From an uncultured Pseudomonadales bacterium (GTDB lineage Bacteria > Patescibacteriota > Microgenomatia > UBA1400 > MFAQ01): a stretch of 64,000 nucleotides of DNA. Positions within the stretch are counted from its first letter, which is position 1. Each line of letters starts with the position of its first letter. The notes under the pieces were generated by a model, which saw nothing but the letters and a program-made list of their open reading frames with translations, searched no databases and was not told where the DNA came from. Position numbers and translations under genes: made by a program. The stretch lies in the NCBI GenBank assembly GCA_964513845.1, contig CAZENT010000001.1, positions 149,278 through 213,277 on the forward strand, written 5' to 3'. Shown one piece after another: positions 11,039-64,000 of the stretch.

Positions 11039-11707
11039 ATGACATATTTTAACCGAGGTGGAGGTGACAGTCGATCCCAATTTTATAGTCCAAGAGAAGG
11101 TTTTGGATCAAGAGGTAATGACAGAGGATCTGAGAGAAAAGAGATGTTTGACGCAGTGTGCGCCAAATGTGGCTCAGCTTGTCAGGTTCCTTTTAAACCA
11201 AATGGCAGAAAAGAAGTTTTTTGTAGTAAATGTTTTGGTGAAATGAACGGTGAAGAACCTCGTGGTGGTGGAAATAGATTTGAGAGTAGAGGCAATGACA
11301 GAGGTTTTGGAGACAGACCAAGGTTCGACAAACCCATGTTCAGTGCTATTTGTGATGAATGTGGAGATAACTGCCAAGTTCCTTTTGAACCAAGAAATGG
11401 CAAACCAGTTCTTTGTAGTGATTGTTTCGCTAAAAAGGATGGTGGAAGAGACTTTGCTCCAAGATCATTCTCACCTTCAGCCAGACCAGCAAACACTTCC
11501 AGCAATATTGATCTTAGTGAACTATGTGCCAAATTGGACAAAATCATTAAATTGCTTACTCCTGAGTCTCCCAAGAATATAACTGAGAAAATAATTGAAG
11601 AGATTGAAGCCAGTTCCGGAAAAGAAGTGGTTGCTCCTAAGAAAAAGGCTAAGAAAGCCACATCCTCCAAAGGCGGATTGAGTACAAAGAAAATCGTAAA
11701 AGAATAA
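11039..11707 (+). CDS. Tandem CxxC-x17-CxxC zinc-ribbon-like repeat protein with a Lys-rich C-terminus
   Basis: Two ~85-aa repeats, each RGNDRG ... MF(D/S)A(V/I)C(A/D)(K/E)CG..CQVPF(K/E)P..G(K/R)..(F/L)CS.CF. The C-terminus KKKAKKATSSKGGLSTKKIVKE looks nucleic-acid-binding. Confidence 0.6.
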   Translation: MTYFNRGGGDSRSQFYSPREGFGSRGNDRGSERKEMFDAVCAKCGSACQVPFKPNGRKEVFCSKCFGEMNGEEPRGGGNRFESRGNDRGFGDRPRFDKPMFSAICDECGDNCQVPFEPRNGKPVLCSDCFAKKDGGRDFAPRSFSPSARPANTSSNIDLSELCAKLDKIIKLLTPESPKNITEKIIEEIEASSGKEVVAPKKKAKKATSSKGGLSTKKIVKE

Positions 11708-49964: not shown

Positions 49965-50396
49965 TTATTTGTCTAGGGCTTCGTTTACCAGACAGTCTGC
50001 CTTCTTGTTTAGTTCTCTGGGGACGGTGATAAATGTCATTAACTCTACTTGTTCTTTTTCACGTAACTCTTTGACCAAATCCACCACCTGTTGACGAAGT
50101 ATTTTGAGATGGGGTAGTTTTACTTTGTATTTGCCAAGAATTTGTCTGACAATTAATTCTGAGTCCAAAATGTATTTAAGTTTTTGGGTATATATTTTTT
50201 TCTCAAGCAATACCTCTAAACTTCTAATTACGGCGGTGTATTCGGCGACGTTATTGGTGGTTTCACCAATGGTTTCTGAAATGGTAAATACTTTTTTACC
50301 GTTGGATGCGGCATACACACCAATGCCGGCTGGCCCAGGATTTCCACGCGACCCACCATCGGTATTTATTTCTAGAAGTTCATATTTTTCTTGCAT
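49965..50396 (-). CDS. rnhA: Ribonuclease HI
   Basis: INTDGGSRGNPGPAGIG, TNNVAEY, and NKKADCLVNEA motifs carrying the D-E-D-D catalytic residues. Confidence 0.85.
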   Translation of the reverse strand: MQEKYELLEINTDGGSRGNPGPAGIGVYAASNGKKVFTISETIGETTNNVAEYTAVIRSLEVLLEKKIYTQKLKYILDSELIVRQILGKYKVKLPHLKILRQQVVDLVKELREKEQVELMTFITVPRELNKKADCLVNEALDK

Positions 50397-53132: not shown

Positions 53133-53987
53133 CTAATTGGATAATTTTTTTTGATTACTGCTTGATTTGATTTTTCTAAGGAAATTTTGTGAGGTAACGA
53201 TACTTTTACCAATTTCTTTCTCTAATTTTTCTCGTGCTCCACCGGCGATTTTACCTCCCCGATGAGATATTTTTTTGTTTTCTTCAAAACCATGAGGGTG
53301 TTCTGTTTTGGTGATTTCTGTTGTCGAAGCTTCTCCCAACATCGAGAAGAGGAGTTCAAGATCTGTCATGTGATCTCGAAGGTTTTGTCTTTCCAGTCCC
53401 TTTATCTTTTTGTGTTCAGAGGGAGATATGCCAAAGGCTGCCTTGGAGATTTCTGCTGTCAGAATGGCGTAATCCAGTTGCTGTCTGACTCCATGGATTT
53501 GCCATTGTTCAGTTAGATCTTCACGAATAACTATAGATCGCATTCTTTTTTCGATCCAACCATCTGGATATCCCTTGGCTTTGTAGATAGCTCTGACTCT
53601 TTTTTGGGCAAGCTCCGGATCTTCAATTTCTTGAATTCTTTCATATCCCACCTTTGCTAACCAACGCTTGAATGGTTCTGCTTTGGGAGAGGGGATGGAC
53701 TGAATAATACGAAAAACGCTCTCTGTGTTTGCACAGTCTGTATCGTATTTTTTTCCATCTGATGACGCTAATTTCAGTTGTCTACAAATTGTAGACAACT
53801 CAACTCCATCGCTTGACTTAACCCTAGTTTTCATGGCGTTCCAATACACCCTTGGTTTTTTACTATTCGTTAACGCCTCGATAACATCAACAACTGAAAA
53901 CCACCATTCGTTTTTGAAGATGATTTTTCTAATCTCCTTTTTTTGGAAAATCGCTATCCTTGTTAACTCCTCAAATTTGTTGGACAT
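53133..53987 (-). CDS. Bro-N domain protein, DinD-like (DNA-damage-inducible protein D family)
   Basis: N-terminal Bro-N-like NEWWFSVVDVIEALTNSKKPRVYW and a DinD-like central/C-terminal region. It is inserted between rnpA and yidD. Confidence 0.5.
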   Translation of the reverse strand: MSNKFEELTRIAIFQKKEIRKIIFKNEWWFSVVDVIEALTNSKKPRVYWNAMKTRVKSSDGVELSTICRQLKLASSDGKKYDTDCANTESVFRIIQSIPSPKAEPFKRWLAKVGYERIQEIEDPELAQKRVRAIYKAKGYPDGWIEKRMRSIVIREDLTEQWQIHGVRQQLDYAILTAEISKAAFGISPSEHKKIKGLERQNLRDHMTDLELLFSMLGEASTTEITKTEHPHGFEENKKISHRGGKIAGGAREKLEKEIGKSIVTSQNFLRKIKSSSNQKKLSN

Positions 53988-57976: not shown

Positions 57977-60721
57977 TTATGGAACAACTGCCCACATTCG
58001 GAATAGTTTGTATGATGTATCAAGAGTGTGAATATAGTTTTCACCCATCCATGGATCCATAGTGGTTATTTGATTTCCTTCGTGGGCGACGATGACCAGA
58101 AGATGCCCACACCATCCTCCACCACAAGCCATATCACCTGTTGCTAAAATCATGCCACAGTTCGAGAGAACGCTGTCAGCTTCGGCAAGATCTGATCCGA
58201 TATCGGTAACTGAAAGTCCACTTTCGGAAAGAATTTTTAAAGAGTTAAAATTGTCTGACCCACAAGAAACGTAAGGTATTTTGCCATCATAGACACGTGG
58301 TGGAGAATTGCTATCCCAGTAAACATATCCTCCGATTGAGTGTTGCCAATGCCAGACATCAGTAACATTTGAAGTTACACCAAAGCCGTTTAAAATCATG
58401 GTCATAGAAGCACTACTACAACCTGATGACCCAATTCGACAACTGCCAGCTGGTGAACAGTTTTTACAAAAAACGCCTGCCCATTCGGGGTCTCTTTGTG
58501 AAATAAAAATTCCTTCGGTATTAGCACAACCTGTGGCAGAGGTACGAGTTTTTGGAATTGATTCGAGTTGAACAAGAGTAGAAATAAGGGGGGCGACAAC
58601 AATGGAAGAAACATAAAAGAAGAAACCTACAAGTACGCCTAAAACAAGAGTGCCCACAGCAGAACTGGCGGCGGTTGTTGTGGCGGAACCGATTCCGGAA
58701 AAAAATTTGGATACTGCTGAAACAGCACCAACAACAGGAACGATGAGAACATCTCTAGTTTTAATTTTTTCACCATAGACAGAAACAGCTACTTTTTGAA
58801 CGACATTGACAGTTCCTTTTATGACAGAGAGAATAATGTCTCCAACAAGCCAGATTATAGCAGGAATAGCACCAACTCCTGTTGCTGCAAGACCAAATTT
58901 TGCACCAATACTGACTGCCAGTTTGGATAGAGCTTTCCCAAGACCTTTTTTTGTAAGTTCGGTGGCGATTTTCGTTCCGGCTTTAATGGCTGCTTTTCCT
59001 GCCGTAGAAGAAAGAATTTTTTTAACAACATAGTCACCTACTTTTTTGCCAACCCACGATCTAACGGCACCAATAGGATCTTCAACTATTCGAAAAATAT
59101 TGCCAAAAACAACGGGGAATTTGTCAGATATTTTTGAGAAAAATTTTGTGACAGGTTGAGTTAATTTTGTCCAACCAGTGATAATTTTATTAATATTTTT
59201 TCCTATAGGAGTGTTTGCGAATTTTCCAAGCACAACAGGCACTTTGGTGATTTCTTTTCCTAAAGGTGAGTTGGCAATTCTTCTGATCTGAGTGCCGGCT
59301 GCATCAAATAAATCCTTATTGGATTTGAAAAGTTTACCAAGTTCTGATTCGGGATTGTTTTTTGCGTAGAGACGGGCTTTGGCAAGTAAGGTTGGGGTGA
59401 GCCCTTTGCCGTATAAAAGGATAGCTTGGGGAGAAAGATCGGGATCTTGAGTTTTGGAATTAGTTACTAAAGCAGCGGACATCTCGGCTTGATAGCCGGC
59501 GTGAGCATTTAGCTCTCCAGGCATGTTGTGACGAATCGCTGCTTCTAGAAGCGCTGCGTCGTCGAGAGAAGAAAATAGGCGCGGCTGAACACCATTGTTT
59601 TCGAGATTGGAATGAATGGAGATAAAGACATTGTTGGCGAGCTCAATTCGATCGAGAGTGTCAGGGTCTTTTGATAGTCTTGTTTGACTGTCTTTATTAA
59701 ATTCTTGAAAAGCGACAGCTTGATTGTCAACAAAGACATCGAGTTGTTTGGGAAGATTTTCTATTTTTTGAGCAAGTTTTTGATTTGTTTCGGTGAGAGT
59801 TTTAATCTGAATAAGTTTGATTTCCAGATCTACGACTATATTTTGTTTGACTTCTTCTGCGTATTTTAAGAGAATAATTTCGTTTTCAGCAATTTGAGCA
59901 GTTAGGGTGGCTGCTTGTGTGGTTTGAGTATTGACCGCGTCGTAGACAGAGTGAACAAAATTTGAAGAAATTTTAGATAGATTTTTTTGATCTTCGGCTG
60001 ATAAATCTGAGATGTTAATCAATAGTGAGGCGGATTGAATGGCAACATCAATATTGGTAACACAAATGGAGTTTAGCTCCACAGCCTCTTCGATGATTCT
60101 GTTTTGCGCTTCTACAGATAACTTTAAAAAGCTTTCATGAGTAAGAGCAACTTCTCTCACTGCTGCGTAAGAAGCAGCTAAAGCAGTTTTTTTTGAGTCT
60201 GATTTTGGAGAACCAAGCGAGATTAATACTTTATCTGCGTCTTGAAACTTTTCTCCTCTGGCTTGTCTTTTTTGTTTGTTAAGAAGAGCTTTTTGCTTTA
60301 TCTTTGAATGGGCAATAGCTATTTTGACCTGTTCGGCAACCGATCTCTGAGAGTTTGATTTTATCTCTTCGCTTTCGAGAAGGGCTTTGTTTTTCTCGTA
60401 CTCAGCAACTAAAGACTCGAGTTCTGGGGGAATGGAGGCTTCGGGTTTTGTTTCCTCTTCTTCGTTAAGAGAATTGAGTTTAATTATTAGCTTTTCGATT
60501 TCACCTGAGCCGGCAATATATTTTTGAAAAGAGTAGACGTCGATTATTCTAGGATCAATACGATCATCAGGGAAAAATTTAGGCCAGTATCCTTCATACA
60601 ACGAATAAGCTTTGTTTAGAATTTTTAAAATTCTAGAATTTAGTTTGTCTTCTGAAACAGCCAAATACGAAAGAGAGTTCTTTAGATCCTTAATGTCTTG
60701 CGAATAATCATTTTTTGCCAT
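57977..60721 (-). CDS. T4SS-associated membrane protein with a C-terminal papain-like cysteine peptidase domain (C39-like/CHAP-like); PrgK/TcpG-type cell-wall hydrolase analog
   Basis: Coiled-coil N-domain (~560 aa), amphipathic Lys-rich repeats, 2 or more TMs near residues 600-700, and a C-terminal domain with candidate catalytic Cys (GSSGCSSASMTMIL) and His (GGWCGHLLVIVAHEG). Confidence 0.5.
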   Translation of the reverse strand: MAKNDYSQDIKDLKNSLSYLAVSEDKLNSRILKILNKAYSLYEGYWPKFFPDDRIDPRIIDVYSFQKYIAGSGEIEKLIIKLNSLNEEEETKPEASIPPELESLVAEYEKNKALLESEEIKSNSQRSVAEQVKIAIAHSKIKQKALLNKQKRQARGEKFQDADKVLISLGSPKSDSKKTALAASYAAVREVALTHESFLKLSVEAQNRIIEEAVELNSICVTNIDVAIQSASLLINISDLSAEDQKNLSKISSNFVHSVYDAVNTQTTQAATLTAQIAENEIILLKYAEEVKQNIVVDLEIKLIQIKTLTETNQKLAQKIENLPKQLDVFVDNQAVAFQEFNKDSQTRLSKDPDTLDRIELANNVFISIHSNLENNGVQPRLFSSLDDAALLEAAIRHNMPGELNAHAGYQAEMSAALVTNSKTQDPDLSPQAILLYGKGLTPTLLAKARLYAKNNPESELGKLFKSNKDLFDAAGTQIRRIANSPLGKEITKVPVVLGKFANTPIGKNINKIITGWTKLTQPVTKFFSKISDKFPVVFGNIFRIVEDPIGAVRSWVGKKVGDYVVKKILSSTAGKAAIKAGTKIATELTKKGLGKALSKLAVSIGAKFGLAATGVGAIPAIIWLVGDIILSVIKGTVNVVQKVAVSVYGEKIKTRDVLIVPVVGAVSAVSKFFSGIGSATTTAASSAVGTLVLGVLVGFFFYVSSIVVAPLISTLVQLESIPKTRTSATGCANTEGIFISQRDPEWAGVFCKNCSPAGSCRIGSSGCSSASMTMILNGFGVTSNVTDVWHWQHSIGGYVYWDSNSPPRVYDGKIPYVSCGSDNFNSLKILSESGLSVTDIGSDLAEADSVLSNCGMILATGDMACGGGWCGHLLVIVAHEGNQITTMDPWMGENYIHTLDTSYKLFRMWAVVP

Positions 60722-60726
60722 ATCAG

Positions 60727-62574
60727 TTACAAAGATTCTGCTTGTTGTTTGCGTGCTTCGAGTACTTCTGAAGGCTTGGTAGTGGAAAGAGCGTGTTCGT
60801 CTGGGGAGGAGATTACTTTGATGGCAACATGATTTTGTCCGGCAAAGAAAATACCTTCTCCGACACCGGCTGAAACTAAAAGTTGTTTTTCTCCTTGGGA
60901 GAGATAGAAAACTTCGGCTATTTGATTGATAGCGGCTGAAGATTGTTTGAGAAGGAATTTGAGGGCAGAGTTGGTAATGATGGCTTTACCATAGGGAGAG
61001 GCTAAAAAGTCGTCAACGTTTTGAGAGATGACAGTAACACCAAGATAGTATTTACGGGCACGCTTGACAAAACCTTGGAGAATCTTGGCAGAGTCTTCGT
61101 AGCGCATAAGATACCAGGCCTCATCTACAATGAGCATGCGTTTACGAAGATTTTTGCGTATTTCTGTCCAGACAAAGTCAAGAATCATAAACATAACGAT
61201 AGGACGAATCTCATCAGCAAGATCGCGCATGGAAAAAACTGTAATAGGAGCATCGATATCGATATTTGATTGCTGATCGAAAGTGCCTTTGATACCGCCC
61301 ATGACGTATCGCTCTAGTCTGGCAGCTAGTACCTTGGCTGTTTGATCTTCCATACCGATGATGGCACGGTAAAGATCTTCCATACGAGGAGGTTCTTGGG
61401 TGTGTGTGGCAGGATCATCAGTGATGTTTTTCTGACGATAGGTGAGAACGAGGGCGCGATTCATGGTGGCCTCTTCCATGGGGGACATGGCACCAATCAT
61501 GATTTTAAGTAAGGAAATGAGGAAAAGATATTTGTAGCCCATTTCATCTTCAGTGCTTTCTAAAGGCCTCGCAATTTGAAACGGATTAATTTTGTGGGGA
61601 GAGTTGGCAGAAAAAGAAATGTAGTTTCCGCCTACGGCTTTGGTGACCATTTCATATTCGTTTTCCGGATCGAGAATGATGATTTGGGTGTCAAACATTA
61701 AAGAGCGAAGAATTTCTAGCTTAACGGCATAGGACTTACCGGCACCGGCTGTGGCCAGAACGAGCATGTTGGCGTTTTCGAGAGAGAAACGATCGAAAAT
61801 AATGAGAGAGTCGTTGTGAGCATTGATTCCGTAAAGAATACCTTGGTTGTCTGAAAGTTCGGAGCTAGTGAAGGGAAAGGTGGTGGATAGAGCAGTTGTG
61901 TCCATGTTTCTTGTGATCATCAGCTTGTCTTTGCAGTATGGAAGAGTAGTTTTGAAGGCATCCTCCATAGAGAGTGAGGCGACTTTGCTGATAATGAGCA
62001 GAGAAGCGAGCATGCTTTGAACCTGAGAAGTGACAGTGTTGAGCTCTTTTTCGGACTCGGCAGAGATACTGATGTAAAGAGAAAACTGGAAAAAGCGTTC
62101 GGCACCTTTGACTAGCTGTGCCTGAAGTGTTTTAGCGTCTTCTAAAGCCGCTTCGGTGGCGGCTTGGGGAATACGACCTCTTTCGATGTCAGTGTTAATC
62201 TCGGCTTCCATTTCGGCCAGGCGACGCCTGAGGCTATCAAGAGTGTCTTTGGAGTCACTAGGATAGATGTACATGGAGATATCAAGAGAGTGATTGAAGT
62301 TTACGAGAGGAGCAAGCCAGTTGGCGGAAACATAACGAGGGTAACCAGTGACAAAAAGAGTGCGAATGTAGTTGTCGTCAATCTTGATAAAAGAAAAATC
62401 AACTTCGATGGAGGAGGGAGCTAAAACATCTTGAATTGAAGCGGCGTTGGTAGTGTCTTTGATGGCCGAAAGAGGAGCTCTGGGCTTTTCTTCAGTTGAT
62501 GTGACAGGAGCCGCCGAGACAACGGGTGGTGTTTCGGTCTTTTTGGCACCAAGAGAAAAGAGATTTAACCCCAT
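60727..62574 (-). CDS. virB4: VirB4/TrbE/CagE-family T4SS ATPase (C-terminal about three quarters)
   Basis: CagE_TrbE_VirB region (YIRTLFVTGYPRYV), Walker A LATAGAGKSY, Walker B MLIVDEAWYLM, and DPENEYEM. Confidence 0.8.
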   Translation of the reverse strand: MGLNLFSLGAKKTETPPVVSAAPVTSTEEKPRAPLSAIKDTTNAASIQDVLAPSSIEVDFSFIKIDDNYIRTLFVTGYPRYVSANWLAPLVNFNHSLDISMYIYPSDSKDTLDSLRRRLAEMEAEINTDIERGRIPQAATEAALEDAKTLQAQLVKGAERFFQFSLYISISAESEKELNTVTSQVQSMLASLLIISKVASLSMEDAFKTTLPYCKDKLMITRNMDTTALSTTFPFTSSELSDNQGILYGINAHNDSLIIFDRFSLENANMLVLATAGAGKSYAVKLEILRSLMFDTQIIILDPENEYEMVTKAVGGNYISFSANSPHKINPFQIARPLESTEDEMGYKYLFLISLLKIMIGAMSPMEEATMNRALVLTYRQKNITDDPATHTQEPPRMEDLYRAIIGMEDQTAKVLAARLERYVMGGIKGTFDQQSNIDIDAPITVFSMRDLADEIRPIVMFMILDFVWTEIRKNLRKRMLIVDEAWYLMRYEDSAKILQGFVKRARKYYLGVTVISQNVDDFLASPYGKAIITNSALKFLLKQSSAAINQIAEVFYLSQGEKQLLVSAGVGEGIFFAGQNHVAIKVISSPDEHALSTTKPSEVLEARKQQAESL

Positions 62575-62597
62575 GATTAAGTATAACCGAAAAGGGG

Positions 62598-63254
62598 TTA
62601 TTTAGGGATTAAAGAAGGGTTGATTTGAGCTGGGCTGAGTGTGGTTGAGCCTTGGTTGTAGATAGTGTAGAAAAAAGTAACAAGATCGCTGGTTGTTAGT
62701 TGGGAAGCTTTGAGCCCTAAACGAGCAAACTGTCGAATTAAATGATCGCGACGAGGATAGAGAACAGTAGAAGCTTTTTCTTCGATATACACCAGGTCAA
62801 AAGGAGGTTTTTGAGGAGCTTTGGCAAAAGGATTGAAGTTGGATTTGGACAGGCCAAGTTCGATAGCTGAAAAAGGAATAATCACATAAAACTTTTTTTC
62901 CAAAACACGGTTTTCTTTGACAAGGGATTTGACAAACTGGCGATAAGCCAGAAGCTGTTCCTTAATTTTTTGGGAAGAGACAGACTGAATACGGGTATCG
63001 ATGAGATTGAGGTAGTCGGAAATATTTTTTCTCTGGGAACGGATAAGGATTTGAACAGGGAAAGAAAGAGAGTTTAGAAGGCCAGCGTAGGCATAAATCG
63101 TAGCATCTTGTTCCTCTTCTGAGAGAAGATTGAAGTTGATGGCGGTGGTTTTGAGAACCAAGGCGGCTGAACCATCTTTGAGAAAAACGAGATGATCTTT
63201 GATGGCATAGATATCGAGATGTTCTTGGGTAGAGGCTTTGATGTTGTCGGGCAT
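62598..63254 (-). CDS. VirB4 N-terminal domain encoded as a separate ORF (split VirB4), or a frameshifted pseudogene fragment
   Basis: IKDHLVFLKDGSAALVLKTTAINFNLLSEEEQDATIYAYAGLLNSLSFPVQILIRSQRK matches the VirB4 extreme N-terminal region. It ends 23 nt before the VirB4 ATPase ORF, in a different frame. Confidence 0.5.
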   Translation of the reverse strand: MPDNIKASTQEHLDIYAIKDHLVFLKDGSAALVLKTTAINFNLLSEEEQDATIYAYAGLLNSLSFPVQILIRSQRKNISDYLNLIDTRIQSVSSQKIKEQLLAYRQFVKSLVKENRVLEKKFYVIIPFSAIELGLSKSNFNPFAKAPQKPPFDLVYIEEKASTVLYPRRDHLIRQFARLGLKASQLTTSDLVTFFYTIYNQGSTTLSPAQINPSLIPK

Positions 63255-63259
63255 TTTCT

Positions 63260-64000
63260 TTATTGAGCTTGGATTTTAAGAGGTTTGACAATGTCTCCGG
63301 TAAGTTCGAGAGAGTAAGGAGCAAAGGAAAAGCCTTCTTTTTCGGCGAGAATTTGGAAAAGACCAGAGTCAAGAGGCCTGGCGAACATAAACTGCCCAAG
63401 TTTGTTGCTCTTGGTGGCACGAAGAGTGAGATTGTCTTTTTTGATTTCCACCATAACGCTGTCGAGGATATGTCCTGAAGGGGTGAGAGTCAAACCAACA
63501 AGAGTGTTGGGCGTGGTAGGAGTAAAAGGAATGGGGAGGTTGGTGGTGGGAGCCGGAGCTTGGGCAACAGGGGCTGTTTGAATAGCTGGAGCCGGCTCGG
63601 GTGGGGCAATTGGAGTAGTAATGGGTTCTGGTGAAGGAGTTGGTTGAGTAGCCGAAGGAATTTCTTGGGGTGGAGTTTGAGCCGGAGCTTGGGCAACAGG
63701 GGCTGTTTGAATAGCTGGAGCAGCGGGCTGGTCCGGAGTAACCGTTTTTGAGGCTTCGGTAATCTCGATACGAGCATTGGTGACGGGCTGAGCGATTGCT
63801 AGATTATTTTCTTTTGTGGGGACGGCAGTTTCGGTGCTTGATGGGCTGGCGACAGTTCTTTTCCAAGAATATTGGGTGGGTGAGTAGATAGATTTGATGA
63901 AAGCGATTAGCCAGACATCAAGAGAGCGACCTTGAACGGGAACGAAGGCTATGCCAACACCAAGTAGAAGGAAGGCAAAGACGATGGGGTATTTGAAGAA
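63260..64000 (-). CDS. Partial CDS (5' end off-window): N-terminal TM segment, Pro/Ala/Thr-rich linker with a 129-nt tandem repeat, and a C-terminal beta-sandwich-like domain
   Basis: Manual translation of the minus-strand frame continuous with ORF 63260-63493 is open to the window edge: ...FFKYPIVFAFLLGVGIAFVPVQGRSLDVWLIAF ... PAAPAIQTAPVAQAPA ... EPAPAIQTAPVAQAPAPTTNLPIPFTPTTPNTLVG-LTLTPSGHILDSV.... The track ORF 63490-63777 is the off-frame L/P-rich reading of the same repeat. Confidence 0.6.
   Translation of the reverse strand, partial: FFKYPIVFAFLLLGVGIAFVPVQGRSLDVWLIAFIKSIYSPTQYSWKRTVASPSSTETAVPTKENNLAIAQPVTNARIEITEASKTVTPDQPAAPAIQTAPVAQAPAQTPPQEIPSATQPTPSPEPITTPIAPPEPAPAIQTAPVAQAPAPTTNLPIPFTPTTPNTLVGLTLTPSGHILDSVMVEIKKDNLTLRATKSNKLGQFMFARPLDSGLFQILAEKEGFSFAPYSLELTGDIVKPLKIQAQ
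63550..63721. repeat. Two copies of an identical 43-nt core (129-nt period) encoding the APAIQTAPVAQAPA linker repeat
   Basis: GAGCCGGAGCTTGGGCAACAGGGGCTGTTTGAATAGCTGGAGC at 63550-63592 and 63679-63721. Confidence 0.8.

Follow-up and report, generated by a model that had tools for sequence, protein, structure and literature searches.

A TrsD-like gene and a shortened virB4 form a conserved gene pair in chromosomal type IV secretion loci of Patescibacteria

Results

The window, that is, the whole stretch of 64,000 nucleotides analysed, carries on its minus strand a cluster of type IV secretion system (T4SS) genes in which the VirB4 sequence is divided between two open reading frames, here called ORF A and ORF B. 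In the direction of transcription the features are as follows.

63260–64000, minus strand: 3′ part of a PrgI/VirB3-like gene, one open frame that runs off the end of the window
62598–63254, minus strand: ORF A, 218 aa, a stand-alone TrsD-like protein, with ATG start and TAA stop
62575–62597, minus strand: 23-nt spacer between ORF A and ORF B
62580–62585, minus strand: TATACT, a −10-like hexamer (putative promoter) ending 5 nt before the ATG of ORF B
60727–62574, minus strand: ORF B, 615 aa, a VirB4-type ATPase without the first N-terminal subdomain, with ATG start
61732–61746, minus strand: Walker A motif GAGKS, ORF B residues 277–281, inside the P-loop_TraG, AAA_10 and DUF87 matches
61114–61134, minus strand: Walker B region LIVDEAW, ORF B residues 481–487
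57977–60721, minus strand: 914-aa ORF, 5 nt after ORF B, with hydrophobic segments in its C-terminal third

These coordinates agree with the original prediction of a 218-aa and a 615-aa ORF in different frames with a 23-nt gap, which together (~833 aa) have the length of a normal VirB4. The start codon of ORF B lies 680 nt after that of ORF A and, as 680 mod 3 = 2, the frames differ. The junction reads ...CCT AAA TAA ccccttttcggttatacttaatc ATG; the string given for it previously, TAA ATAACCCC..., takes as its start a TAA that is out of frame and exceeds the true length by 6 nt. The peptide quoted at the same time, DGSAALVLK...IRSQR, corresponds to ORF A residues 27–75. No slippery heptamer was found within or preceding the spacer, as had been suspected, and the spacer holds no Shine–Dalgarno sequence.

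The PrgI/VirB3-like frame ends 5 nt before the ATG of ORF A and, since it runs off the window, its N-terminal PrgI domain lies outside. It is collinear with a 302-aa ORF in the closely related locus L001 (L001:5090-5998), which matches the Pfam family PrgI (PF12666) with E = 9.7e-7 and 29.7 bits against a cut-off of 27. On the other side of the pair, the C-terminus of the 914-aa ORF has a weak papain-like match below cut-off (Peptidase_C39_2, E = 0.0025). It is by position that this ORF may be taken as an envelope or hydrolase gene, its place being that of the cell-wall hydrolase and membrane proteins TrsF/TrsG in the staphylococcal plasmid pSK41 and of a Peptidase_M23 protein in Amesbacteria. 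The genes rnpA, yidC and jag lie in the window 6–10 kb from the gene pair, and the cluster is near the replication origin. Neither a relaxase nor a coupling protein was seen in the cluster examined.

ORF B scores above the cut-off of the NCBIfam model conju_CD1110 (NF045971; 373.7 bits versus 325, profile positions 183–734 of 752) and matches Pfam P-loop_TraG at 1.1e-28. In the PDB it matches, by sequence, the VirB4 C-terminal domain 4AG5 (E = 3.3e-45) and TrwK (8e-7). Its layout comprises a disordered N-terminal leader (about residues 1–48), a CagE_TrbE_VirB-type subdomain and a RecA-like ATPase domain, and from its sequence we take it to be a VirB4 ATPase in which both Walker motifs, A and B, are intact. 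In some orthologues of ORF B an intein is inserted at the Walker A site. ORF B does not carry a complete N-terminal domain on one polypeptide: it lacks CD1110 positions 1 to about 182 and TIGR00929 positions 1 to about 239, for which the separate protein A provides the coverage. The two ORFs are collinear on the single-chain VirB4 models of NCBIfam.

VirB4_plasma (894 positions): ORF A 127–284, ORF B 290–877
conju_CD1110 (752 positions): ORF A 25–134, ORF B 183–734
TIGR00929: ORF A 18–142, ORF B 240–729

The 615-aa product had been thought to begin inside the CagE_TrbE_VirB region. Residues 143–212 of ORF B match positions 124–196 of the 204 in that Pfam profile which, with the TIGR00929 positions above, shows that the break precedes this subdomain and falls in a linker at the domain boundary.

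The matches of ORF A to NCBIfam are weaker (VirB4_plasma 6e-8, TrsD/TraD 3.6e-4, CD1110 8.4e-4, TIGR00929 7e-3) and lie far under the curated cut-off of every model matched. For the TrsD/TraD family, NF041427, the score is 20.4 bits against a cut-off of 200, and on sequence grounds ORF A appears to be only a remote relative of that family. When an alignment of 52 A-family sequences is compared with pSK41 TrsD using hhalign, the probability is 95.6% (E = 1.1e-8, 181 columns), with columns 12–208 on TrsD residues 32–219 of 227, and the position between a VirB3-like gene and virB4 is the same for ORF A in the window and the orthologous loci as for TrsD in pSK41. Sequence and profile searches of ORF A against PDB chains gave chance matches only, to CIB1 and DciF, and a local Pfam scan, run up to E = 10 on ORF A together with three homologues, gave no relevant match. 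The AF2 model of ORF A has a pLDDT of 87.7; in a Foldseek search of the PDB its top 14 matches are all TrwK/VirB4, the fold being that of the N-terminal region of the single-chain TrwK of R388 (PDB 7O41/7O42/8RTD). The relation of ORF A to TrwK is thus visible at the level of the fold only. ORF A is the equivalent of the first alpha/beta subdomain of the VirB4 N-terminal domain, and the suggestion that the 218-aa product resembles the VirB4 N-terminus is borne out by the NCBIfam matches, the TrwK fold matches and the naturally fused relatives described below.

We found 2046 homologues of ORF A, the best 120 of which are all 196–239 aa long. Many members of the family have Q/N/P-rich disordered tails of 100–500 aa. 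The TraC-like family PF26593 is given in the precomputed annotation of nearly all close homologues, whereas the local Pfam scan of ORF A itself did not report it.

Orthologous loci (66) were recovered from Collierbacteria, Woesebacteria, Cerri- and Chisholmbacteria, Gracilibacteria and Paceibacterota. Whether orthologues keep the two-ORF layout had been set beforehand as a check, and A and B are separate ORFs in all 59 loci that have a virB4 and enough downstream sequence, a set drawn from several classes of Patescibacteria. Their relative frame is 0, 1 or 2 in 16, 20 and 23 loci, respectively, and their spacing ranges from a 35-nt overlap (−35) to a gap of +359 nt; all 16 same-frame loci still have a stop codon between A and B. 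The closest genomes (L001–L003, 92–94% identical) have a 27-nt spacer with A and B in the same frame, so that one indel is not enough to turn their junction into that of the window. Both ORFs are intact, with identities among orthologues from 33% to 94%, and both are under purifying selection; the orthologues of ORF B keep their own ATG and N-terminal leader. A adjoins B in 59 of the 61 loci with enough downstream sequence. The other two, L060 and L064, come from Gracilibacteria and from one Woesebacteria-like genome; no virB4 was identified there in the 6 kb that follow trsD, so the two products may not be obligate partners everywhere. The prgI-like gene stays paired with trsD in these two loci also, and in 55 of 56 informative loci it is the gene immediately upstream of A.

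The −10-like box before ORF B is conserved among the Collierbacteria and Woesebacteria orthologues; of the spacer as a whole, the orthologous loci keep the 3′ part only, as GTTATACTTAA(A/T)(T/C)C-ATG. Within the window, a box of this kind starting at −16 to −11 is present at 18 of 55 gene starts compared with 2.4% of all ATGs (p = 3e-16). The box suggests that virB4 may have its own −10-type promoter and a leaderless or near-leaderless mRNA. A scan of 60600–64000 for sigma-70 −35/−10 pairs gave none at the A/B spacer, and a terminator scan of the same region gave none between A and B; with neither a −35 element nor a terminator, co-transcription of B with A is equally possible. A literature search for leaderless mRNAs in Patescibacteria gave nothing relevant. 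In other lineages A and B overlap as ATGA or TAATG, and there the two are probably translationally coupled. Such coupling, previously proposed for the window copy, is probably not found there, given its 23-nt gap, conserved −10-like box and lack of a Shine–Dalgarno sequence.

In close relatives from Amesbacteria both parts are found in a single VirB4 chain of 783–897 aa. One of these fused proteins, P0142 (787 aa), occurs on contigs of independent samples in the order PrgI, fused VirB4, Peptidase_M23, dnaN, and another, P0273 (794 aa), was found on 24 contigs. The best 120 relatives of P0142 comprise 43 fused and 77 split forms; in a split relative whose ATPase part is 85% identical, PrgI is accompanied by a TraC-like protein of 217 aa and a VirB4 of 610 aa. 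PF26593 stands in the precomputed annotation of the 217-aa neighbour in locus L070. The fused relatives align to TrwK over their whole length (780–875 columns on full-length TrwK, E = 2.8e-26, for the model of a fused protein), and the model matches 4AG5 by fold with TMt 0.78; its pTM of only 0.48 means that the packing of the subdomains is not established. A similar order of secondary-structure elements in this model had suggested that A and the first subdomain of B resemble each other and that the VirB4 N-terminal domain arose by internal duplication. This was rejected at the sequence level (hhalign probability 0.15%).

When fused and split forms are aligned across the junction, the break maps to a variable linker. 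This linker is shortened in the fused forms, which come from another sub-lineage than the 59 split loci. A neighbour-joining tree of 112 close relatives has at least seven changes between the fused and split states, with the root inferred to be split; the tree was built from a hand-made distance matrix and is rough, and the count of seven is indicative only. The Amesbacteria proteins thus indicate that the break sits in a disordered linker and that the fused or split state is evolutionarily labile.

Discussion

The position of the A/B break is that of the TrsD/TrsE boundary in the Staphylococcus aureus plasmids pSK41/pGO1 (MPF_FATA, pGO1 subclass), whose gene order trsC-trsD-trsE-trsF-trsG is also that of the window cluster: a VirB3-like gene (trsC/prgI), a protein of ~220 aa, a VirB4 of 615–672 aa, and membrane and hydrolase genes. 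ORF B and TrsE align end to end, starting at the same structural point (BLASTP 5e-46; ORF B residues 49–587 on TrsE 36–617), and both have an N-terminal peptide in which hydrophobic residues are followed by lysines (MGLNLFSLGAKK in ORF B, MIMAFLKKKK in TrsE). The identities are low, about 20% for A and TrsD and 26% for B and TrsE. The two systems differ in that the window system is chromosomal and near the origin whereas pSK41 is a conjugative plasmid, and in that the 14-nt spacer of pSK41 has a Shine–Dalgarno sequence, GAAGGGAG, where the window copy has a −10-like box instead. We know of no function assigned to TrsD in pGO1/pSK41 conjugation.

In Patescibacteria, TrsD is the most abundant T4SS component and is usually adjacent to virB4 (1664 of 2272 homologues; Quiñonero-Coronel et al. 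2025, PMC12102498). The same paper reports its location near dnaA/rnpA, its essentiality in Ca. S. epibionticum, and trsD without virB4 in Gracilibacteria; an essential T4SS in Ca. Southlakia epibionticum was described by Wang et al. (2023, PMC10633639). The remote homology of TrsD to the VirB4 N-terminus is likewise stated there (PMC12102498), citing Guglielmini et al. 2014 (PMC4027160), in the main text of which the word TrsD is absent. The window pair, with its TrsD homologue beside virB4, its PrgI/VirB3 homologue and its chromosomal location near rnpA and the origin, is an ordinary Collierbacteria-like member of this group without substantive difference, the best loci being 92–94% identical. 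The main text of PMC12102498 makes no mention of TrsD–VirB4 fusions, of a −10 box before virB4 or of an intein, nor of prgI adjoining trsD in nearly all of the Microgenomates loci examined here; VirB3–VirB4 associations are few in Microgenomatia according to that paper, whereas the prgI–trsD adjacency found here is 55 of 56.

We consider it very likely that the pair is the normal functional layout of the chromosomal T4SS of Patescibacteria of the Microgenomates/Collierbacteria type, in which VirB4 is made as two polypeptides. The order would be prgI (VirB3-like), the trsD-like gene, virB4 and a large envelope or hydrolase gene. The 218-aa protein would supply the first VirB4 N-terminal subdomain and the 615-aa protein the remainder of the N-terminal domain with the RecA-like ATPase, the break lying in the variable, disordered linker between subdomains. 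The two chains may assemble non-covalently into a VirB4-like unit in which the TrsD-like piece would make the contact to the PrgI/VirB3 membrane anchor, and in this lineage a −10-type promoter of virB4 itself could lead to the two parts being made in different amounts.

The original prediction had left four explanations side by side: a genuine split, a programmed frameshift, a pseudogene and an assembly indel. The first rival is that a virB4 which is normally one chain was broken by an indel, introduced in sequencing or assembly, or by a frameshift that recently made it a pseudogene; in its favour are only the summed length of A and B, which is that of a normal VirB4, and the fused relatives of another lineage. 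We regard this as highly improbable, as the split is present in 59 of 59 loci of independent assemblies with all three relative frames and very different spacers, the 16 same-frame pairs keep a stop codon, A and B are each intact and conserved, ORF B has its own conserved ATG and leader, and the 27-nt same-frame spacer of the closest genomes is not one indel away from that of the window. Programmed ribosomal frameshifting or bypassing, by which A and B would yield one 833-aa VirB4, is less probable still: beyond the adjacency and different frames of the window copy there is nothing in its favour, no slippery heptamer is present in or before the spacer, neither the frame relation nor the spacing is conserved, and in two genomes trsD is not followed by a virB4 within 6 kb. 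With the split universal among the 59 loci and frame and spacing varying, indel, pseudogene and programmed frameshift are excluded by the orthologue comparison and, as judged from the sequences, the split is a genuine conserved gene pair and neither an artefact nor a frameshift nor a defunct gene.

A different possibility is that the TrsD-like protein, though of VirB4 N-terminal descent, is now an independent accessory, such as a partner of PrgI/VirB3, a chaperone-like adaptor or an assembly factor. Its occurrence with prgI in the absence of a nearby virB4 in L060 and L064, and similarly in Gracilibacteria (PMC12102498), would be explained in this way, as would the long disordered tails of many A proteins, which are superfluous for a simple domain. 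We nevertheless think it unlikely. The best structural match of A is TrwK itself, A adjoins B in 59 of 61 loci, and in-frame fusion to VirB4 has occurred repeatedly (43 of the best 120 relatives of P0142, with at least seven state changes on the rough tree), which argues that both parts function together, at 1:1 proximity, within a single complex.

The preferred reading, of VirB4 made as two polypeptides, may be set against single-chain VirB4 (TrwK, 4AG5 of Thermoanaerobacter pseudethanolicus and the CD1110 family), which is one polypeptide where the window has two. In R388, VirB3 wraps the VirB4 N-terminal domain (PMC9259494), and the N-terminal domains make the contacts of the VirB4–VirB4 dimer. 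VirB3–VirB4 fusions, of which those of Campylobacter plasmids are an example cited in PMC12102498, run in the opposite direction to a fission of VirB4, and there is none in the window; they show that the module of VirB3 and the VirB4 N-terminus can be distributed over polypeptides in different ways.

More tentatively, and with rather less than even confidence, these observations may be read jointly: TrsD would be a detachable first subdomain of VirB4, the boundary having been closed and reopened several times, with terminal peptides that re-assemble the two parts and a leaderless promoter before the second. Split B proteins start with M-x-L-(N/P)-x-F...KK, the start of pSK41 TrsE being similar, and some A proteins end in VAPNIxK or LPPIAEIT, resembling the IAPxxIEVDF strand of B. 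Such short conserved terminal peptides of the split forms could mediate a non-covalent re-assembly, and the PrgI–TrsD membrane module and the ATPase could differ in amount, which would agree with the situation in R388, in which VirB3 is contacted by only half of the VirB4 copies.

Both the TrsD–virB4 pairing in Patescibacteria and the remote TrsD–VirB4 homology are already published, and biologically little is added here. For annotation, neither a frameshift nor a pseudogene flag belongs on the junction, and "TrsD-like VirB4 N-terminal subdomain protein" is a suitable name for the 218-aa "hypothetical protein". The fused forms, the conserved −10-like box and the intein in some orthologues are minor extras. 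A modest addition is that close relatives include both naturally fused and split versions and that prgI and trsD are linked even without virB4, which together give a first concrete functional hypothesis for TrsD, namely that it may be the VirB3-docking piece of VirB4. If TrsD is indeed a detachable subdomain, these loci would offer a natural split-protein system for dissecting VirB3–VirB4 assembly.

The two halves of virB4

Two ORFs with ATG starts lie on the minus strand, A coding for a TrsD-like protein and B for a VirB4-type ATPase.

Features of the virB4 region (window positions unless stated otherwise)
64000..63260, minus strand: ORF upstream of A, running off the window end; collinear with a 302-aa protein of orthologous locus L001 with a PrgI (VirB3-like) domain
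62598..63254, minus strand: ORF A, 218 aa, ATG start
60727..62574, minus strand: ORF B, 615 aa, ATG start
B residues 277-281, minus strand: Walker A, GAGKS, intact
B residues 481-487, minus strand: Walker B, LIVDEAW, intact

The junction reads ...CCT AAA TAA ccccttttcggttatacttaatc ATG GGG. Coordinates and junction sequence confirm the split into two ORFs in different frames with a 23-nt spacer, as in the original prediction, which had mis-parsed the stop codon (the true stop is the TAA after CCT AAA).

B is a VirB4-type ATPase. It scores 373.7 bits against NCBIfam conju_CD1110 (cut-off 325; profile positions 183-734 of 752), covers positions 290-877 of 894 in VirB4_plasma and 240-729 in TIGR00929, and has Pfam matches to P-loop_TraG, AAA_10 and DUF87. 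In the PDB it matches the C-terminal domain of Thermoanaerobacter VirB4 (4AG5, E 3.3e-45) and TrwK, the single-chain VirB4 of R388 (E 8e-7). The idea that the CagE_TrbE_VirB region already contains the start of B was wrong, since the sub-threshold Pfam match places B 143-212 on profile positions 124-196 of 204.

Neither a local Pfam scan nor a PDB sequence search gave a match to A. The NCBIfam models align it with VirB4_plasma positions 127-284 (6e-8), CD1110 positions 25-134 and TIGR00929 positions 18-142, matches that are weak but collinear with those of B and that support its earlier assignment, from a peptide now placed at A residues 27-75, to the VirB4 N-terminus. A 201-position TrsD/TraD model also matches A (3.6e-4).

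Conservation of the split

A survey with a single genome for each species gave 66 loci, distributed over Collierbacteria, Woesebacteria, other Microgenomates, Cerri-/Chisholmbacteria, Gracilibacteria and Paceibacterota. A homologue of B follows A on the same strand in 59 of them and is a separate ORF in all 59; the check proposed at the outset had asked for this comparison. The relative frame is 0, 1 and 2 in 16, 20 and 23 of these loci, and the spacing varies between an overlap of 35 nt and a gap of 359 nt. In protein databases A has 2046 homologues, the best 120 of which are all 196-239 aa long. An exhaustive search of cluster representatives gave 1735 relatives of the domain, which always spans approximately residues 5-205 and in many cases precedes a disordered tail.

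These data exclude the three alternatives to a genuine split. An assembly indel is incompatible with 59 split loci of varying frame and spacing; moreover, in the nearest genomes (92-94% identical) the spacer is 27 nt long and a stop codon separates the two ORFs, which share a frame, so that no single indel relates these genomes to the window. A pseudogene is excluded by the conserved split and the homologue set of A, and programmed frameshifting by the distribution of frames and the variable spacing.

Five loci end too soon 3' of A for the presence of virB4 to be judged. No virB4 was found within 6 kb downstream of A in L060 (Woesebacteria-like) or L064 (Gracilibacteria), one genome each, and their ATPase gene must be elsewhere or absent. 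In place of virB4, housekeeping genes follow the prgI-trsD pair at L060:4661-6624 and L064:5428-6657 (tsaD with SUF genes, or rplA in the opposite orientation).

Fused relatives and the linker

In the cluster representative P0142 (787 aa) an A-like domain is joined in frame to a B-like protein; contigs of independent samples carry it in the order PrgI, fused VirB4, Peptidase_M23 protein, 332-aa protein, dnaN. Among the 120 best relatives of P0142, 43 are fused (738-897 aa, Candidatus Amesbacteria included), 68 are split-type (493-667 aa) and nine are split-type with an intein. Another fusion, P0273 (794 aa), follows PrgI and was read on 24 contigs. A split relative, P0301, shares 85% identity over the ATPase part; its locus on a 582-kb contig (L070) encodes PrgI, a TraC-like protein of 217 aa and a VirB4 of 610 aa, the last with an ATGA overlap. 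A rough neighbour-joining tree built from 562 columns of the ATPase part in 112 sequences, with pSK41 TrsE for outgroup, has a split root and at least seven changes of state.

In the junction alignment the A domain terminates in ...LFxxxYN, a linker of highly variable length follows, and the B part opens with a conserved D-(I/L)-(I/L)-AP-x-x-I-E-V-D-F; the ends and starts of the split proteins fall inside the linker. The fused protein as modelled by AF2 (pLDDT 76.6, pTM 0.48) aligns over 780-875 columns with the complete TrwK chain (E 2.8e-26) and also with 4AG5 (TMt 0.78), the relative domain placement not being reliable. A and B together are one VirB4, as the fused relatives show: two conserved polypeptides, jointly collinear with single-chain VirB4 and evolutionarily interchangeable with the fused form.

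Split-type VirB4 proteins share an N-terminal peptide, M-x-L-(N/P)-(L)-F-x-x-G-K-K (MGLNLFSLGAKK, MKLPFSLGGKK, MRIPFLKKGG), on comparing window 62539-62574 (B residues 1-12), the B N-termini of L001-L066 and pSK41 TrsE (L069:26584), which begins MIMAFLKKKK. No more than 18 of 77 called N-termini fitted a loose regular expression, in part owing to differences between the called starts. The shortest fused form, P0142, is without this peptide, and some longer-linker fusions hold a trace, GLPAFLQKK.

Many TrsD-like proteins of other Patescibacteria have Q/N/P/S/T-rich disordered C-terminal tails of ~60 to 500 aa (P0187, P0198, P0225, P0170, P0131; L035-L043), the longest ending in a conserved LPPI(A/S)EI(T/E) or MPPIPEIK; the C-terminus of Woesebacteria-type proteins is ...DYEQAIVAPNIAK. 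Both are similar to the IAPxxIEVDF strand with which the VirB4 part opens. The terminal peptide may be a docking peptide.

Some Collierbacteria and Woesebacteria orthologues (L010:6681-10319, L017, L019, L022, L056) have a virB4 ORF of 1128-1220 aa with an in-frame intein at the Walker A P-loop (Pfam Intein_splicing 5e-19, LAGLIDADG_3 3e-19, Hom_end), equivalent to window 61732-61746. Another nine VirB4 clusters with an intein (1158-1215 aa) came from the protein search.

Expression signals

The 23-nt spacer holds no Shine-Dalgarno sequence. It contains TATACT ending 5 nt before the B ATG, and only this part is conserved in orthologue spacers (GTTATACTTAAATC-ATG in Collierbacteria); TATACT is also present at the more distant Woesebacteria-type loci, there 6-10 nt ahead of the ATG. 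A -10-like hexamer (TAnA[AC]T) beginning at -16 to -11 precedes 18 of 55 window gene starts, compared with 2.4% of ATG trinucleotides overall (p = 3e-16), for example the starts at 11039, 16787(-), 18500(-), 19399, 36735(-), 42478, 49729(-) and 62574(-); Shine-Dalgarno sequences occur at few starts. This sequence pattern suggests that leaderless or very short-leader mRNAs are widespread in this Collierbacteria-like genome, and we infer that virB4 has its own promoter. Neither a -35/-10 pair at the spacer nor a terminator between A and B was detected, so transcriptional read-through from A is possible. In other lineages ATGA, TAATG or longer overlaps suggest translational coupling.

Neighbouring genes and proposed assembly

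Of 56 informative loci, 55 have a PrgI-like gene immediately 5' of A, and the gene is retained in both loci where no virB4 was found within 6 kb downstream. At 63260-63700 (minus strand) the window's PrgI-like protein has a long Pro/Thr/Ala-rich repeat, with APAIQTAPVAQAPA present twice, and a C-terminal beta-sandwich-like domain (weak NOMO1-like match, E 0.015), unusual for a VirB3-type protein; L001, L045 and L060 share this architecture.

The gene order is that of pSK41: trsC, trsD (227 aa), trsE (672 aa), trsF, trsG. B aligns with TrsE (E 5e-46) from B residue 49 and TrsE residue 36 onward, so the break point is the same. The 914-aa product of the gene 3' of B has a weak C39-like peptidase domain, and hydrophobic segments lie in the C-terminal third of the chain; at this position pSK41 has TrsF/TrsG (CHAP) and Amesbacteria have Peptidase_M23 proteins.

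The genes rnpA, yidC and jag lie 6-10 kb from the cluster, as expected for an origin-proximal position. Between rnpA and yidC a gene for a 284-aa Bro-N domain protein (53133-53987, minus strand) may have been inserted, as a mobile or phage-derived gene, into an otherwise conserved rnpA-yidC-jag block; a small RNase H/RVT_3-like protein is encoded nearby (49965-50396, minus strand).

The N-terminal domain of R388 VirB4 (residues 15-400) has VirB3 wrapped around it and forms VirB4-VirB4 dimer contacts (PMC9259494). The A and B chains would join non-covalently, the TrsD-like piece being the putative VirB3-docking part of VirB4, a role that fits the persistent prgI-trsD linkage.

The window is an ordinary example of a TrsD-virB4 layout that is already known. 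Quiñonero-Coronel et al. 2025 (PMC12102498) reported 2272 TrsD homologues in Patescibacteria, 1664 of them associated with virB4 and Gracilibacteria the exception; TrsD, there without assigned function, is elsewhere confined to the pGO1 subclass, and the T4SS is often near dnaA, rnpA and rpmH. The main text of that paper mentions neither fused forms and their lability, the -10 box or the intein, nor that prgI adjoins trsD in almost every Microgenomates-type locus. Ca. S. epibionticum requires the T4SS for epibiotic growth (PMC10633639; PMC12102498). The fused forms, the prgI-trsD adjacency, the -10 box and the intein add incrementally to the published account (PMC12102498).
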